Positions 29,502 through 54,002 of a DNA stretch of 64,000 nt are shown piece after piece (within the stretch, counting starts at the first letter, position 1; the number at the start of each line of letters is the position of its first letter). A program made the position numbers and the translations under genes. The notes under the pieces are model-generated. The model was not told where the DNA came from. It worked only from the letters and a program-made list of their open reading frames with translations, and did no database searches. Source of the stretch: a virus. The stretch covers positions 29,765-93,764 of the IMG/VR virus record IMGVR_UViG_3300035703_000044. The stretch is one strand, 5' to 3'.

Positions 29502-29573
29502 GGGCTCATAGTTAAGCGGATATAACTACCGCCTTCTAAGCGGTCGTCCCTGGTTCGATTCCAGGTGAGCCTG
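29502..29573 (+). tRNA. tRNA-Arg(UCU)
   Basis: Cloverleaf; ACCGC-CTTCTAA-GCGGT. Confidence 0.92.
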
Positions 29574-29611
29574 TTGACAATTATACTCAATTACTCTATA
29601 ATTGTCTTATT

Positions 29612-29682
29612 GCGAGTGTGGTGTAGTGGTAACATGCGAGCCTTCCAAGCTCTTGTCACGGGTTCGAACCCCGTCACTCGCT
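29612..29682 (+). tRNA. tRNA-Gly(UCC)
   Basis: Cloverleaf; GAGC-CTTCCAA-GCTC; promoter TTGACA-17-TATAAT upstream. Confidence 0.92.
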
Positions 29683-29684
29683 CT

Positions 29685-29756
29685 CCTCTGGTAGTCTATT
29701 GGTAAGGACACCCCGACAAGGGAGTTGGAAATTGGGTTCGATTCCCAGACAGAGGT
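29685..29756 (+). ncRNA. tRNA-like element with non-canonical anticodon arm
   Basis: Acceptor CCTCTG/CAGAGG, D arm and T arm (TTCGATT loop) intact; anticodon arm reduced to CCC-GACAA-GGG. Confidence 0.65.
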
Positions 29757-29760
29757 ACAT

Positions 29761-29836
29761 TCCCCTATAGCTCAATTGGCAGAGCACGGAGCTGTTAACT
29801 CTGGGGTTGTTAGTTCGAGTCTAACTGGGGGAGCCA
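29761..29836 (+). tRNA. tRNA-Asn(GUU), CCA encoded
   Basis: Cloverleaf; CGGAG-CTGTTAA-CTCTG. Confidence 0.92.
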
Positions 29837-29837
29837 C

Positions 29838-29910
<73 letters not shown>

Positions 29911-29931
29911 CATAAATATTTCAAAAAGATA

Positions 29932-30369
29932 ATGGACGAGTTATACCAGTCATTACACAAAGCACAAACAAGTCTTTTTTGTTTAATGCAAAAGACTTGG
30001 GTATATCATTGGAATGTGGTTGGTTCGGATTTCTTTGAACTTCATGAAGCATTTGGTGAACAATATACTACAATGCAAGGTGAACTAGATAGATTGACTG
30101 AACATATGAGATATCTTCGCATGAAAGCTATCTCACCAATCAGTAGAGTCATTGAAACATGCGAGATTCCAGAAGCATCATCAAACCCAACTGATAAATC
30201 TATGGTTTCTCAGTTGCTTGCAGACAATAAAAAGATGATTGAACTTCTCACTTCTGTTGTAGAAGAATCTGAAAAAACAAAACAATATACTACATCAAAT
30301 ATTGCTCAGGATTTAATTGAAACACATGGCAAATTTGTTTGGATGTTACGATCGTATTTGAAAGAATGA
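29932..30369 (+). CDS. dps: Dps-family ferritin-like protein
   Basis: HWNVVG..FFELH..F.EQY...D.L.E ferroxidase pattern, WML at C-terminus. Confidence 0.88.
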   Translation: MDELYQSLHKAQTSLFCLMQKTWVYHWNVVGSDFFELHEAFGEQYTTMQGELDRLTEHMRYLRMKAISPISRVIETCEIPEASSNPTDKSMVSQLLADNKKMIELLTSVVEESEKTKQYTTSNIAQDLIETHGKFVWMLRSYLKE

Positions 30370-30539
30370 AAAAGAAAACCTTTAACAAACTTATTCAAAA
30401 ACCTTTGAGGTTTCATCATCAAGATATTCATGAGGAACTTGATATTATTAAGTTAGAACTATTAGAGATTAGGAGATTATTGCAAGATGTTAATCGTGAG
30501 ATGCCGAGATTGCAACAAGGAGATAACCAGCACGAATAA
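30366..30539 (+). CDS. Hypothetical protein
   Basis: ATGA-coupled to dps. Confidence 0.45.
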   Translation: MKKKTFNKLIQKPLRFHHQDIHEELDIIKLELLEIRRLLQDVNREMPRLQQGDNQHE

Positions 30540-30732
30540 AACTCAGGTGTGTGGTTGTCCAAATACTATGACTGTCAAAGGTGACAGTGTTTCAGCTGTT
30601 GACTTAAGTAGAGTAGTTATGGTAAACTCTACACAGAAAGAACAAAGAAATGTTCTGACTTCTCAAGATCTTGCTTTTCAGGAAGCAAGGAGACAACGCA
30701 AAGTTCGTAAACTGGACTTTGAGATTCGATAG
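30487..30732 (+). CDS. Small zinc-binding hypothetical protein
   Basis: CxxC...CxC. Confidence 0.6.
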   Translation: MLIVRCRDCNKEITSTNKTQVCGCPNTMTVKGDSVSAVDLSRVVMVNSTQKEQRNVLTSQDLAFQEARRQRKVRKLDFEIR

Positions 30733-30818
30733 GAAGGTCAAGCCGATAGGTGACGGCAGCTGTCTTGAAAACAGTCGAGGTGTTAAAGCCCTTAGGCGTT
30801 CGATTCGCCTACCTTCCG
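30732..30818 (+). tRNA. tRNA-Ser(UGA)
   Basis: Long variable arm; GCTGT-CTTGAAA-ACAGT. Confidence 0.9.
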
Positions 30819-30941
30819 TTACATAAGATACAGATTTAAGATTTTGTTTCGTTTTCTGTATCGCAGTGTTACAGAATCCTGACATATAGTTGACTTTGAA
30901 AAACCAGTGATTAGTATATATTAGTAATACGAATCACAGAC

Positions 30942-31091
30942 ATGGACCAACATACCTATAATAATTGGGTCCGTATAAAGGAAACATTTGAAGCATCTGG
31001 TAATACAGATAATATGTTTTACAAGAGATCAGTGGAGATAGTTAAGACTAGAAGAGATCCCTTGGCAAAGTTTCTTGGAGATGAAAAGTAA
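30942..31091 (+). CDS. Small hypothetical protein (49 aa, not in track)
   Basis: MDQHTYNNWVRIKETFEASGNTDNMFYKR...; promoter-like sequence upstream. Confidence 0.55.
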   Translation: MDQHTYNNWVRIKETFEASGNTDNMFYKRSVEIVKTRRDPLAKFLGDEK

Positions 31092-31109
31092 GATTATACA
31101 TAGAGTACG

Positions 31110-31223
31110 ATGAGACATCTTGTTGTGGAATTACTTAATAATAATCTGTTCTTATTCATCTTGTGTTACCTCTTGACAATGGTTCCAATCTTGGGTATAA
31201 TGATCATACACAAAAACAAATAA
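31110..31223 (+). CDS. Small membrane peptide (37 aa, not in track)
   Basis: Single hydrophobic helix; ends at tRNA-Pro. Confidence 0.4.
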   Translation: MRHLVVELLNNNLFLFILCYLLTMVPILGIMIIHKNK

Positions 31224-31297
31224 CGGGGTGTAGCTCAGTTTGGTAGAGCGCTGCTTTTGGGAAGCAGAAGTCGTAGGTTCGAATCCTGTCACCCCGA
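31224..31297 (+). tRNA. tRNA-Pro(UGG)
   Basis: Cloverleaf; CTGCT-TTTGGGA-AGCAG. Confidence 0.92.
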
Positions 31298-31313
31298 TCA
31301 TAAAACTCACTTT

Positions 31314-31541
31314 ATGAAAATGCAAGAAATTTCTGAACTTCAATCATTCACTGTAGAAGAGTTTCAAACTGACTTTGATAATCTTATGGATAGAGTAGAA
31401 CAAGGAGAATCGTTTATCATAACAAGTGAACATGGTAGTGCAGTTATGGTGCCATATAAAGAAGTGGTAGAAGTATTTGAAGAATGTGGTGTGAGTGAGG
31501 ATATAATACGCATTCACACCAACCACGAAGAAGGTTCATAA
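31314..31541 (+). CDS. Phd/YefM-like protein
   Basis: FTVEEFQ.DFD.LMDRVE.GE.F.IT....AVMVP resembles the Phd/YefM N-terminal fold. Confidence 0.5.
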   Translation: MKMQEISELQSFTVEEFQTDFDNLMDRVEQGESFIITSEHGSAVMVPYKEVVEVFEECGVSEDIIRIHTNHEEGS

Positions 31542-31548
31542 TTTTCTC

Positions 31549-31620
31549 GGGACTGTCGCCTATTGGCTAAGGCCCACTGCTTATAACGGTGTGAACTGGG
31601 TTCAATTCCCAGCAGTCCTA
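31549..31620 (+). tRNA. tRNA-Ile(UAU)
   Basis: Cloverleaf; CACTG-CTTATAA-CGGTG. Confidence 0.85.
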
Positions 31621-31623
31621 CTT

Positions 31624-31696
31624 GCTCCTTTAGCTCTCTGGTGAAAGCACTCTGCTCATAACAGAAGAAAGGTCAGTTCGATCCTGACAAGGAGCA
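31624..31696 (+). tRNA. tRNA with CAU anticodon (Met or Ile2)
   Basis: Cloverleaf; TCTG-CTCATAA-CAGA. Confidence 0.85.
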
Positions 31697-31773
31697 CTAG
31701 GACAGAAACTCTTCTGTCCATCTTGACTTCTCCAAGTCAAACCCTTATAATACTAAGGTCAACATTCAAAACA

Positions 31774-31989
31774 ATGACTCTCAATTCCAAATTCAAGAAA
31801 GACATCCAAACCCTTCGTGGTGCAGCAAACGGTGAATTTTATCTTGATGTGAAGAATCCGAAACTTTACAAAAAGGTTCGTCGGTACTATGAAAGTGAAG
31901 GTGTAGTATTCTCTGGTGATCCTCTGGATGATTATGAAATGCTTATGGAATATGTGTATAGTGACCTTGAATCTGTGGAAGTAGCATGA
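31774..31989 (+). CDS. Conserved cyanophage hypothetical protein
   Basis: LDVKNPKLYKKVRRYY; promoter TTGACT-17-TATAAT upstream. Confidence 0.65.
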   Translation: MTLNSKFKKDIQTLRGAANGEFYLDVKNPKLYKKVRRYYESEGVVFSGDPLDDYEMLMEYVYSDLESVEVA

Positions 31990-32234
31990 CAACACGACTT
32001 CCTAAAGTTCTTTTGGAACGAGAAGGATATCGTTTCGTTGAAGTGGGTATTCTTGAAATCAACGGTAAACCTGATTACCGTATGCAAAAACAAAACGAAT
32101 ACACCAAACGTTGGAATGACATTTATCTTTTTGATAATGTTCTACAATGTTCTACTGCAATGGAAGATATTGAGTATGCGAAATGGTTAGATCCAGATCG
32201 TGTTCCTTGTTATGTGAGAGATGATGATGAGTAA
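31986..32234 (+). CDS. Conserved cyanophage hypothetical protein
   Basis: ATGA-coupled; NGKPDYR.QK...YLFDN. Confidence 0.65.
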   Translation: MTTRLPKVLLEREGYRFVEVGILEINGKPDYRMQKQNEYTKRWNDIYLFDNVLQCSTAMEDIEYAKWLDPDRVPCYVRDDDE

Positions 32235-32282
32235 ATAGTCACGGATGGACTATAACAGCACTGGTCGGGAGCAAAACCCCTT

Positions 32283-32516
32283 ATGTCTAAATCTGATATT
32301 CTCAGATACATTGGTAATGTTCTTCTCTTATCAGGATACTTTTTCCTTTTATGGGGAGATCCAAAATCTGGGTTATTAGTTAAGTGTATAGGAAATGCAT
32401 TTGTAATTCCCTTTGCACTTAAGTATAAGTTCTGGGACATTTTAATTCTATGTGGTTTTTATGCCGCGATTGAGATACCAAAACTTATACAACTTTTCTT
32501 AGTTTCTCAAAACTGA
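32283..32516 (+). CDS. Small multi-pass membrane protein
   Basis: 77 aa, about three hydrophobic helices; lies between RNA modules. Confidence 0.6.
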   Translation: MSKSDILRYIGNVLLLSGYFFLLWGDPKSGLLVKCIGNAFVIPFALKYKFWDILILCGFYAAIEIPKLIQLFLVSQN

Positions 32517-32636
32517 GTGGTGGAGTCAAATGACCCCTATGAGTTTCTTGCTTCTCTCAAGAGCAAGTGGTGCGGATGGAGGTTACTCCCGCTGAGTTTC
32601 TTGTTTTCTCGTACTCAAAACAAGTGGCGAGCCTGA
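32500..32636 (+). ncRNA. wcaG-type structured RNA (repeated GUUUC-hairpin-UGGYG modules)
   Basis: Three modules ending TGGTG/TGGTG/TGGCG, upstream of an NAD-dependent epimerase, the known context of the wcaG motif. Confidence 0.7.
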
Positions 32637-32643
32637 GTTACAT

Positions 32644-32680
32644 AAGAGGAGTTGCATAAACTCCTCTTTTTTTGTATAAT
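32644..32680 (+). terminator. Terminator overlapping sigma70 promoter TTGCAT-17-TATAAT
   Basis: AGAGGAGTT/AACTCCTCT stem plus T-tract. Confidence 0.7.
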
Positions 32681-32707
32681 AGATAGTACAGAGATTATTC
32701 ATTTTCT

Positions 32708-33754
32708 ATGAGTCAATATGTAAAGAAGGCACTTGTGCTTGGTGCTGGTGGTTTTATTGGAAGTCATATGGTGAAGAGACTTCGTTCGGAAGGATATTGG
32801 GTTCGTGGTGTGGACCTAAAATATCCAGAATTTTCTGGGACTGAAGCCAATGAATTTGTTATTGGTGATCTGAGAGATGTTTCTTTTGTAGAACGAGTCA
32901 TTCAATATAAAGGTGATCGTGGAAACTTTTATAAGTTTGTTCCATCCAGATATCTTCAGGCATTTGATGAAATTTATCAGTTTGCTGCTGATATGGGTGG
33001 TGCTGGATTTGTTTTTAGTGGAGAAAATGATGCAGATATTATGCATAACTCCGCTACAATTAATCTAAATGTTCTTGAGTCTGTAAGAAAGTTTAATGAC
33101 TTTCTTGGCAAAAATGTAACCAAAGTTTTCTATTCTGGATCTGCTTGCATGTATCCAGAACATAATCAGTTAGATCCAGACAACCCCGATTGTCGTGAAG
33201 AGTCTGCATATCCCGCTAACCCAGATTCAGAATATGGATGGGAAAAACTCTTTTCTGAACGTCTGTACTTTGCTTATCATCGCAACTATGGTATTCCTGT
33301 ACGTGTTGCTCGATACCACAATATTTTTGGACCAGAAGGGACTTGGACTGGTGGTAGGGAAAAGGCCCCTGCAGCTATTTGTCGCAAAGTAGCAGAACTT
33401 CCTGATCTTGGTGGAACGATTGAAGTGTGGGGTGATGGAGAACAGACACGTTCATTCCTTTATGTTGATGAGTGTATTGAAGCAACTCGTCGCATGATGG
33501 ATTCCAATTTCATTGGACCAGTGAATATTGGTTCCGAAGAGATGGTGACGATTAATCAACTCGTAGATACTGTTTCTAAGGTTGCTGGCATCCCTGTAAA
33601 GAGACAACATAAACTTGATGCTCCTCTTGGTGTTCGTGGTCGCAACTCTAATAATGATCTGATTCGTGAAAAATTAGGTTGGGATTATGAACAGACTCTT
33701 GAAGAAGGCATTCGCAAAACATATTTCTGGATCAAAGAACAACTGCAAAAATGA
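32708..33754 (+). CDS. NAD-dependent epimerase, GDP-mannose 3,5-epimerase-like
   Basis: GAGGFIG, AADMGG.GF, YGWEK, GREKAPAA.CRK. Confidence 0.88.
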   Translation: MSQYVKKALVLGAGGFIGSHMVKRLRSEGYWVRGVDLKYPEFSGTEANEFVIGDLRDVSFVERVIQYKGDRGNFYKFVPSRYLQAFDEIYQFAADMGGAGFVFSGENDADIMHNSATINLNVLESVRKFNDFLGKNVTKVFYSGSACMYPEHNQLDPDNPDCREESAYPANPDSEYGWEKLFSERLYFAYHRNYGIPVRVARYHNIFGPEGTWTGGREKAPAAICRKVAELPDLGGTIEVWGDGEQTRSFLYVDECIEATRRMMDSNFIGPVNIGSEEMVTINQLVDTVSKVAGIPVKRQHKLDAPLGVRGRNSNNDLIREKLGWDYEQTLEEGIRKTYFWIKEQLQK

Positions 33755-46289: not shown

Positions 46290-46334
46290 AAATACATCAA
46301 CACGTTAAGGAATGTTACAGTTCTTTAATGTTTG

Positions 46335-46445
46335 CAACTCCCGTTAACCGAGACCTATGGGAGTATAAGAACGTCTCTCATATCCCCGCTGAGGGTGCGG
46401 GGAGCATAGTAACTCCACCATTTCCCTGATGGTCTTACTAACTGT
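46335..46445 (+). ncRNA. PhotoRC-II-like psbA leader RNA
   Basis: Stems ACTCCC/GGGAGT, GAGAC/GTCTC, CCCCGC/GCGGGG, ACCAT/ATGGT upstream of a phage psbA. Confidence 0.7.
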
Positions 46446-46453
46446 CTAAAAAA

Positions 46454-47533
46454 ATGACTGCTACAATTTCACAACAACGACAATCGAATACTTGGGAACA
46501 GTTTTGCAACTGGGTTACTTCTACCGATAATCGTCTTTATGTCGGTTGGTTCGGAGTCTTGATGATTCCTTGTCTGCTTGCTGCTACGACTTGTTTCATC
46601 ATCGCCTTCATCGGTGCTCCCCCTGTGGACATTGATGGAATTCGTGAACCTGTTTCTGGTTCTCTTATGTGGGGTAACAACATCATCTCTGGTGCTGTTG
46701 TTCCTTCGTCTAATGCTATTGGACTGCACTTTTACCCCATCTGGGAAGCTGCCTCTCTTGATGAGTGGCTATATAATGGTGGACCTTTCCAACTGGTCGT
46801 CTTCCATTTTCTGATTGGTATCTATGCTTACATGGGCCGCGAATGGGAACTTTCTTACCGACTCGGTATGCGTCCTTGGATTTGTGTTGCCTACTCTGCA
46901 CCCGTTGCTGCTGCTAGCGCAGTTTTTCTGGTCTATCCCTTCGGTCAAGGATCCTTCTCTGATGCGATGCCTCTGGGGATTTCGGGAACTTTCAACTACA
47001 TGCTTGTTTTCCAGGCAGAACACAACATTCTCATGCATCCTTTCCACATGTTGGGAGTTGCTGGTGTCTTCGGTGGTTCTCTTTTCTCTGCTATGCATGG
47101 ATCTCTTGTCACCTCTTCTCTCGTCCGTGAGACGACAGAGAATGAGTCACAGAACTATGGATACAAGTTCGGACAAGAAGAAGAGACCTACAACATTGTA
47201 GCTGCTCATGGTTACTTTGGTCGTCTGATCTTCCAATACGCATCGTTCAACAACTCACGTTCATTGCACTTCTTCCTTGCTGCGTGGCCTGTAGTTGGTA
47301 TCTGGTTTGCTGCCTTGGGCGTTTCAACAATGGCGTTCAACCTCAACGGATTCAACTTCAACCAGTCTCTTCTTGATAGTCAGCACCGTGTCATCAACAC
47401 TTGGGCAGACATCCTCAACCGTGCTAACCTCGGTTTTGAGGTGATGCACGAGCGCAATGCTCACAACTTCCCTCTCGATCTTGCATCAGTTGAAGCAACT
47501 CCTGTTGCCTTGACTGCTCCAACTATCGGTTGA
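46454..47533 (+). CDS. psbA: Photosystem II D1 protein
   Basis: [30 protein letters not shown]; no intron. Confidence 0.99.
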
Positions 47534-53411: not shown

Positions 53412-54002
53412 ATGGTGCCTTTTGATATTTATAAGACTTACCTTGCCCTGAAGAATCACTTTACAAAAGATTCTTATGATTATCACAAGTATCAAGGTAA
53501 GAGTCGTGCATCGTTACAATCCTTTTATAAACGAAAGGATAGATACTGGTTTGAGAAGTTATCCAGACAAAAAGAAGACAAAGAAGTTATAGATTTCTTT
53601 GTTGCAAACTTTATCAGTTGCACTGATCCCCAGACAGTATGGATCGGTGAACTGATTAAAGAAGGTGAAACAAGATACAAGTCTTGGCAGAAAAGAATAC
53701 AGTCTCTTTCTTATTTGTTTAAGGAAGAGTCTCAACAACTATTTGAAAATAAATTTGAAGAAGTCTTTGACTGTTCTAAGGGACATCCGCCCCTTTTGAA
53801 AAGTTTCCTGGTCGGGAACATTAGTATAGAAACTCTAGTGATATACGATAAGATATTCCTGTTCGGGAAAAACTTTGACAAGAAACTAAAAGATCCTGTG
53901 TGGGAAACCGTCAGTTTAAAAATAAAAAAGTATGCACCGTTCCTACATATAGATGTATTCCATTACAGAAAAATACTTAAAGAAGTTGTTGGAGGAAAAT
54001 GA
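53412..54002 (+). CDS. gp59: Helicase loader
   Basis: YLALK.HF..YDY.KY, F.KRKD; synteny. Confidence 0.85.
   Translation: MVPFDIYKTYLALKNHFTKDSYDYHKYQGKSRASLQSFYKRKDRYWFEKLSRQKEDKEVIDFFVANFISCTDPQTVWIGELIKEGETRYKSWQKRIQSLSYLFKEESQQLFENKFEEVFDCSKGHPPLLKSFLVGNISIETLVIYDKIFLFGKNFDKKLKDPVWETVSLKIKKYAPFLHIDVFHYRKILKEVVGGK

Follow-up and report, generated by a model that had tools for sequence, protein, structure and literature searches.

Is the wcaG RNA that precedes a sugar epimerase gene in a T4-like cyanophage the leader of that gene, or is it part of an RNA with a different task? The motif was described as a 98-nt RNA with three hairpins and put forward as a riboswitch candidate (Weinberg et al., 2010; PMC2864571). 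It has remained an orphan candidate since 2010, and in genome papers it is commonly labelled as regulating exopolysaccharide genes. The stretch of DNA analysed here (the window, 64,000 nucleotides) is part of a 94-kb record of a roughly half-complete T4-like cyanophage (cyanomyovirus), with the freshwater Synechococcus phage S-SRM01 as its nearest cultured relative (75% identity across 86% of the region). In the window, wcaG is followed by the epimerase and then by a GT11 glycosyltransferase, in keeping with the known settings of the motif, which are cyanophage or marine DNA upstream of exopolysaccharide or high-light genes. A PhotoRC-II RNA also lies in the window (46325-46417, 73.8 bits), with a psbA gene immediately downstream (46454-47533); the product of this gene shares 86-91% identity with cyanobacterial D1, and Cyanobium and freshwater Synechococcus supply its closest named records. 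A preliminary description of the locus, made from the letters, had proposed an expanded wcaG-type RNA with extra modules, an embedded ORF and its own terminator, acting as an independent RNA rather than as a riboswitch.

A chain of four modules

The Rfam model of wcaG (RF01761) matched positions 32539-32638 over model positions 1-98 with 78.1 bits (E=7e-13), above the gathering score of 42, and this is the single wcaG in the whole 94-kb record. The match takes in only the units of the preliminary description at 32542 and 32595 (M3 and M4 in Table 1), and the window holds two further conserved modules on the 5' side, M1 and M2. The P2 hairpin lies between UGGUG (32568) and UGGCG (32625) and the helices covary, which reproduces the family layout of two hairpin-UGGYG units flanking a central GG..CC hairpin; the two UGGYG elements agree with the preliminary description. 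The other elements listed there are likewise present: AGTTTC at 32501, 32542 and 32595, a further TGGTG at 32518, the stems CTTGCT/AGCAAG and CTTGTTTT/AAAACAAG, and a fourth unit in which TGGTCGGGA..CCCC (32262-80) comes after the hairpin ATAGTC/GACTAT (32235-40 with 32248-53). Over 32100-32760 no Rfam family besides wcaG matched, even at E<=10. The scan returned only a second, weak wcaG match over the upstream unit (15.8 bits, 32424-32531), and manA, T-box or another Rfam family was accordingly rejected as an identity for M1 and M2. The manA RNA (RF01745), to which the preliminary description had pointed as well, gave no match anywhere in the window at its gathering threshold, nor did it match near the array at E<=10.

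Table 1. Features of the array region, in window coordinates
Feature	Position	Strand	Evidence and parts
Promoter-like site, TTGACT-17-TATAAT	31723..31751	+	11/12 consensus matches; just 3' of tRNA-Met (ends 31697) and a hairpin
Small ORF, phrog_552 (unknown function), first gene of the unit	31774..31989	+	E=5e-26; ATG 31774; match from residue 18 of a TTG-start ORF
82-aa ORF, phrog_481	31986..32234	+	relatives annotated 'similar to gp206'; TAA stop abuts M1
M1, H-type pseudoknot	32235..32280	+	covariance model R1, 61.8 bits, E=1e-24; covariation in 122 sequences; stem 32237-40 with 32248-51; loop ACGGAUG 32241-47; tertiary pair C32242:G32258; A-rich linker; UGGUCGG 32262-68, then tail GGGAGCAAAACCCC ending 32280
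77-aa predicted membrane protein, phrog_2318	32283..32516	+	E=1.7e-17; between M1 and M2
M2	32498..32537	+	7-bp hairpin 32498-504 with 32511-17; UGGUGG 32518-23; tail hairpin GAGUC..GAC-CCC ending 32537
M3, first half of Rfam wcaG	32541..32592	+	Rfam match and covariation (helices 2, 3); pseudoknot GAG 32541-43 with CUC 32554-56; UUUC; stem 32547-53 with 32561-67; UGGUG 32568-72; P2 hairpin CGGAUGGAG..CUCCCGC ending 32592
M4, second half of Rfam wcaG	32594..32635	+	Rfam match and covariation (helices 4, 5); pseudoknot GAG 32594-96 with CUC 32608-10; stem 32600-07 with 32617-24; UGGCG 32625-29; AGCCUG
Intrinsic terminator	32644..32673	+	10-bp stem, 5-nt loop, T-run (hairpin 32644-32668)
Promoter-like site, glycan genes	32652..32680	+	-35 TTGCAT 32652-57 in the terminator hairpin (loop), 17-nt spacer, -10 TATAAT 32675-80
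NAD-dependent sugar epimerase/dehydratase, first gene of the glycan cluster	32708..33754	+	PF01370, E=2e-38; ATG 32708

Related loci, about 170 in all, came from GenBank phages and from two IMG/VR pattern scans, for which the M2 tail and the M3 tail respectively served as anchor. The order of the modules is fixed in about 120 IMG/VR loci: M1 with UGGUCGG..CCCC, M2 with UGGUGGAGUCA..GACCC, M3 with UGGUGCGGAUGG..CCCGCC, M4 with UGGCGAGCCUG or UGGCGUGCAUG, and then a terminator. The M3-anchored set is unbiased for the upstream part; it comprised 96 loci after 10 GC-rich chance matches had been dropped and at least 700 nt of upstream sequence had been required, and 92 of these 96 wcaG-anchored cyanophage loci carry an M1-type module upstream. 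Of the two refuting conditions named in the preliminary description, read-through as the 5' UTR of the epimerase and upstream modules that are not conserved, the second fails, since the modules are conserved. Spacers between modules measure 25-38 nt or are gene-sized (M1-M2 gaps of about 237 nt, M2-M3 gaps of 256-314 nt), and genes occur between modules only, never within one. About 40 loci share the layout of the window, M1 <237> M2 <30> M3 <32> M4, and about 40 carry its ORF. Most arrays keep all their modules without any intervening gene; in phage S-B05, M1 directly adjoins M2-M4 and there is no ORF. Three-module arrays, arrays with M2 and M1 swapped and arrays with five or more modules were also seen. 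To call the RNA of the window 'expanded' is thus to misplace the emphasis, since most loci have a chain of three to six modules and it is the Rfam model that is cut short. This extended chain is not described in the literature naming wcaG that we searched.

Several variants of the chain were noted along the way. At five loci the M4 end reads UGGUGGAUCCAAAUGACCCC in place of UGGCG and further modules follow, bringing the total to five or more, and at five others the order is M2'-M1'-M3-M4. The M1 covariance model found no second full-length match (hairpin plus tail) in the 64-kb window; a candidate extra copy at 53794-53828 (CCUGGUCGGGAAC) was an 11-bit partial match without a preceding hairpin and is probably a chance match.

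Covariation resolves the fold of the modules. Across 122 distinct M1 modules, 92% of the alignment cells are paired; the 4-bp stem is 94.5% paired, and all four of its pairs show double changes. Loop and linker are connected by two tertiary pairs, one between loop position 2 and linker position -4 (CG in 96, UA in 26, unpaired in 0) and one between loop position 5 and linker position -5 (GC in 20, AU in 16, UA in 14, unpaired in 0), and when the partner columns are shifted pairing falls to 23-34%. The covariation between loop and linker makes M1 an H-type pseudoknot with an A-rich third loop. For M2-M4, an alignment of 36 stretches holds five helices with 95.3% of cells paired and double changes in 22 of 27 pairs. 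In the M3 and M4 pseudoknot stems, the hairpin loop pairs, and covaries, with the 3-4 nt that immediately precede UUUC; the register of the M4 pseudoknot in the window was read by eye, by homology. The hairpin units of the preliminary description thus keep their paired stems, but they are not plain hairpins, M1, M3 and M4 being H-type pseudoknots by covariation. M2 in the ORF-bearing loci does resemble a plain hairpin. Its helix 1 is 98.8% paired with double changes at four pairs, and the stem also appears in the single-sequence minimum-free-energy fold (z = -3.3); comparative stem and single fold together rule out CTCA/TGAG, formerly given as the stem of the unit at 32501, in favour of the covarying 7-bp CTTAGTT/AACTGAG with the loop TCTCAA.

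Of the architecture, taken alone, we are highly confident. Rfam wcaG corresponds to the final pair in an ordered set of four modules, M1-M4, and its model is a partial description; each module consists of an H-type pseudoknot (in M2 here, a hairpin), a conserved UGGYS strand and a short tail hairpin. Pairing does not account for everything that is conserved, as the single-stranded UGGYS and several loop and linker residues (UUUC, AAAG and the GG of the M1 loop) are invariant. The catalogued 98 nt are therefore the tail of a modular chain of pseudoknots that tolerates genes between its modules, has its own terminator and travels with a tRNA cluster.

The probable transcription unit and its nested gene

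Transcription of the array probably starts at the first promoter-like site in Table 1, as part of an operon of small ORFs. An 8-bp hairpin (GGACAGAA/TTCTGTCC, 31701-20) directly follows tRNA-Met and precedes this site, with the ATG at 31774 beyond it. No promoter-like site was found directly 5' of M1 or M2. From these predicted signals we infer that the array forms the 3' part of a transcript of ~0.9 kb after the tRNA cluster, running from the promoter through two small ORFs, M1, the 77-aa ORF and M2-M4 to the terminator. A literature search for transcript maps of the region found nothing.

The 3' border of the array is a conserved feature. Among distinct contexts, 93 of 101 have an intrinsic terminator no more than 75 nt after M4; the stem sequence varies freely and its start lies 1-20 nt past M4. 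In 80 of these 93 contexts a sigma-70-type promoter (at least 9/12 matches) is present as well, and in 76 of the 80 loci with both signals the -35 (TTGCAT or TTGACA) sits inside the terminator hairpin. A perfect TATAAT within 6 nt of the T-run was found in 62 of the 93 contexts, against 41 of 5000 random windows (0.8%). The site in the window had been missed by the consensus scan because its -35 has only 3/6 matches; its conservation points to a role as the promoter of the glycan genes. A transcript from it would have a leader of ~20 nt before the epimerase, without wcaG, and the epimerase itself is context only, outside the array RNA. The first genes downstream of the arrays are diverse, with more than 20 different N-termini, and are sometimes tRNA genes.

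These observations bear on the original proposal of 2010, in which wcaG would bind a small ligand and thereby control terminator read-through into sugar-nucleotide genes. Highly conserved unpaired nucleotides in a compact fold and a terminator directly downstream are what such a switch would show, and the next genes are often a GDP-mannose dehydratase or an epimerase (PMC2864571). Nevertheless, the terminator varies in sequence and spacing and has no conserved anti-terminator or other alternative pairing with the motif across the contexts, and we rejected it as an expression platform on these grounds. The downstream genes, moreover, have their own promoter and are diverse, and a single ligand pocket is hard to reconcile with modules that can be split by genes of 240-310 nt. 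Of the readings considered, a metabolite riboswitch agrees worst with the promoter, with a terminator that varies and with genes lying between modules, and we regard it as very improbable. The conserved terminator and the -35 within its hairpin suggest that the array lies at the end of a short operon just after the tRNA cluster, not in the leader of the epimerase; with its own terminator, and beside tRNA genes, it is probably no simple switch for the sugar genes downstream. The terminator and fresh promoter noted earlier between array and epimerase are thus both present in a conserved arrangement, and as sequence signals they argue against a cis-regulatory role in the 5' UTR of the epimerase. 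The further step of the preliminary description, to an independent RNA, is not supported by the signals: no promoter-like site lies in front of the array.

The nested gene lies between the modules, as had been reported. Its ATG is 2 nt past the M1 tail and its stop (TGA, 32514-16) belongs to the M2 stem, on the 3' strand. Homologous proteins of 73-79 aa are encoded by 40 of 42 distinct M1-M2 inserts; the ATG follows the M1 tail by 2 nt in 36 of the 42, and the stop lies in or just before M2. Nucleotide diversity at codon positions 1/2/3 is 0.26/0.13/0.38 over codons 1-69, and the third-position excess is gone in the final nine codons, where gene and M2 stem overlap. Judged by these patterns, the nested ORF is a real, conserved and translated phage gene. 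It matched no Pfam family; its PHROG has no assigned function and its Atlas neighbours are viral hypothetical clusters only. A second insertion site, between M2 and M3, was noted at five loci, where the gene starts with MSKTPYELRFEIFKQA behind a CA-rich leader, ACACACAUACACACAGGAGA; at four loci the M2-M3 insert is a coiled-coil gene starting MA.KG.AAKSA.

The position of these genes raises the possibility that the modules act in cis. The pseudoknots might punctuate a tRNA-proximal polycistronic transcript, marking sites of RNase cleavage or blocking exonucleases, and M1 might gate the inserted ORF. This would fit with genes that lie between modules and never interrupt one, with the constant distance from the M1 tail to the ATG and the stop at M2, and with arrays that begin at a tRNA 3' end or have a tRNA after them. 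RNase P prefers substrates with U at position -1, and the module tails resemble tRNA 5' ends in that very context. Against it, most arrays keep all their modules although no gene lies between them, and the invariant UGG would be left without a role. We consider cis-acting modules of this kind an unlikely explanation, if a better one than the riboswitch.

Module tails and tRNA 3' ends

Arrays and tRNA genes are close neighbours. A tRNA gene on the same strand lies no more than 1 kb upstream in 94 of 129 arrays and no more than 2 kb upstream in 103 of 118; five arrays start within 3 nt of a tRNA 3' end and about 15 have a tRNA within 100 nt downstream. In the window, a nine-tRNA cluster ends 534 nt 5' of M1. 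This cluster (29502-31697) also contains a tRNA-shaped sequence with an odd anticodon arm (29685-29756), and its tRNA-Ser(UGA), at 30732-30818, is what Rfam matches as tRNA-Sec. At four loci a phage tRNA-Leu-like gene stands within ~30 nt past the array, in place of the sugar genes. The closeness of the arrays to tRNA genes could be mere conserved gene order.

The module tails were compared with tRNA ends directly. A picocyanobacterial genome, picked by psbA similarity before its tRNAs had been seen, served as proxy for the host. Tails were scored by the longest perfect complement to a tRNA 3' end plus CCA, with a conditional null that holds the first five bases fixed. The M3 tail matches tRNA-Leu(CAG/GAG) over 12 nt (13 in the commonest variant; p 9e-4) and the M1 tail tRNA-Pro(CGG) over 9 nt (11-12 in variants; p 0.012), while M2 reaches 8 nt with tRNA-Ala (p 0.14) and M4 8 nt with tRNA-Arg(CCG) (p 0.09); in this proxy, M3 is the module with a perfect complement of at least 10 nt to a CCA-3' end. 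GCGGGUGG in S-SKS1 is an example of a tail variant (M3/M1). Among the 2004 TGG sites in the window, one reaches 12 nt, namely M3 itself. In keeping with the near-invariance of M3, 22 of 61 host-family genomes have a 100% identical tRNA-Leu(CAG) gene. Matches of M3 to the 499 phage-encoded tRNAs never exceed 6 nt. Phage-encoded tRNAs were likewise set aside as partners for the array at large: only tRNA-Pro matches M1, and there is none for M2-M4 beyond 8 nt.

The other two modules behave differently. A pattern search after the T-loop found no tRNA-like exact partner for M2 in 61 host-family genomes and none for either variant of M4 in 201. What was recovered for these tails were chance-level or non-tRNA matches, the nearest being tRNA-Arg(CCG) with 8 contiguous nucleotides and 10/11 overall, and they were rejected. 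The idea of pairing with tRNA was thus recovered in no more than two modules out of four. The five nucleotides of UGGYS fit most tRNAs and so that part of the match carries little information. For M3, 8 of the 12 matching nucleotides are also paired in its own covarying P2 hairpin, and the acceptor stem of the tRNA would have to open too. Finally, the complement of a tRNA 3' strand is its 5' strand, and acceptor-stem mimicry or descent from a tRNA gene fits the tails equally.

A proposed trans-acting array and its relation to known systems

We tentatively propose a trans-acting role for the array RNA, as a docking platform with several binding sites. In each pseudoknot UGGYS would be exposed so that the SRCCA-3' end of a tRNA can base-pair with it, on the model of the UGGN bulge of T-boxes and of retroviral primer-binding sites, both of which read tRNA ends; the specific partner of M3 would be host tRNA-Leu(CAG/GAG) and that of M1 tRNA-Pro. 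As a whole, architecture and docking mechanism together, the proposal is more open to doubt than not, and we favour it over a protein scaffold, cis-acting modules and a riboswitch, which follow in that order.

Second in this ranking is a scaffold or sponge for protein, in which pseudoknot and UGGYS would form sites for a phage or host RNA-binding protein that is titrated or assembled in several copies, as CsrA is by CsrB/RsmZ. Such a role would suit two to six near-identical tandem units separated from the downstream genes, and it would give a reason for UGGYS, UUUC, AAAG and the M1-loop GG being invariant beyond the needs of pairing. M2 points in the same direction: its GGAGUCA is conserved even in loci without a hairpin partner, and it has no tRNA partner. 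However, the tails of M1-M4 differ systematically by position and their order is fixed, neither of which a simple repeated site needs; the long matches of M3 and M1 to tRNA ends would be coincidence; and no candidate protein partner was identified. We think it doubtful that a protein sponge is the answer.

A bolder version of tRNA docking can be imagined. The array might be a phage 'tRNA trap' that captures the 3' ends of host tRNAs reading GC-rich codons, the candidates being Leu-CAG/GAG, Pro-CGG and perhaps Arg-CCG. Translation of the host would be starved, while the AT-rich phage genes would be served by the adjoining phage tRNA cluster, whose acceptor ends, as seen above for M3, would not match the traps. 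This is a long shot. If true, no viral RNA would have been shown before it to target the acceptor ends of tRNAs, and a 16-year-old orphan riboswitch candidate would gain a partner. More generally, the 12-13-nt match of M3 to host tRNA-Leu is a concrete hypothesis and, if it holds, a new phage route to interfere with host translation. Given the chain architecture, the terminator of its own and the association with tRNA clusters, a macromolecular partner (tRNA or protein) and a processed, stable RNA seem worth seeking ahead of metabolite screens.

How does the array compare with known systems? The likeness to the T-box discriminator lies in a conserved UGGY strand beside a helix, with a variable fourth base facing the discriminator position. 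In contrast to T-boxes, which had no Rfam match at E<=10 in 32100-32760, the array has no Stem I, no specifier and no alternative between antiterminator and terminator, and its complementarity runs into the acceptor stem, which T-boxes do not use. The primer-binding sites of retroviruses and LTR retrotransposons are UGG-initiated stretches of 10-18 nt, each the complement of a particular host tRNA at its 3' end. M3, with its UGG-initiated complement to tRNA-Leu, is of that kind; the array differs in having four differing short sites in tandem, two of them without a tRNA match, and no reverse transcriptase is known to be involved. With the sponge RNAs CsrB/RsmZ it shares tandem small structured units and a terminator at the end, but its units are pseudoknots with a 3' UGGYS rather than GGA hairpin loops, and among the modules only the M1 loop (ACGGAUG) resembles a GGA loop of the Csr/Rsm type. 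The tRNA cluster of phage T4 encodes the stable RNAs C and D (species 1 and 2), whose role is not established; like the array, they are small structured RNAs encoded beside the tRNA genes of a T4-like phage, a likeness drawn by description only. As regards the wcaG RNA (RF01761) itself, M3 and M4 together are a full-length, high-scoring member, in a T4-like cyanophage and upstream of exopolysaccharide-type genes, whereas here and in most relatives they form the 3' half of a chain of three to six modules, with nested genes and a closing terminator.
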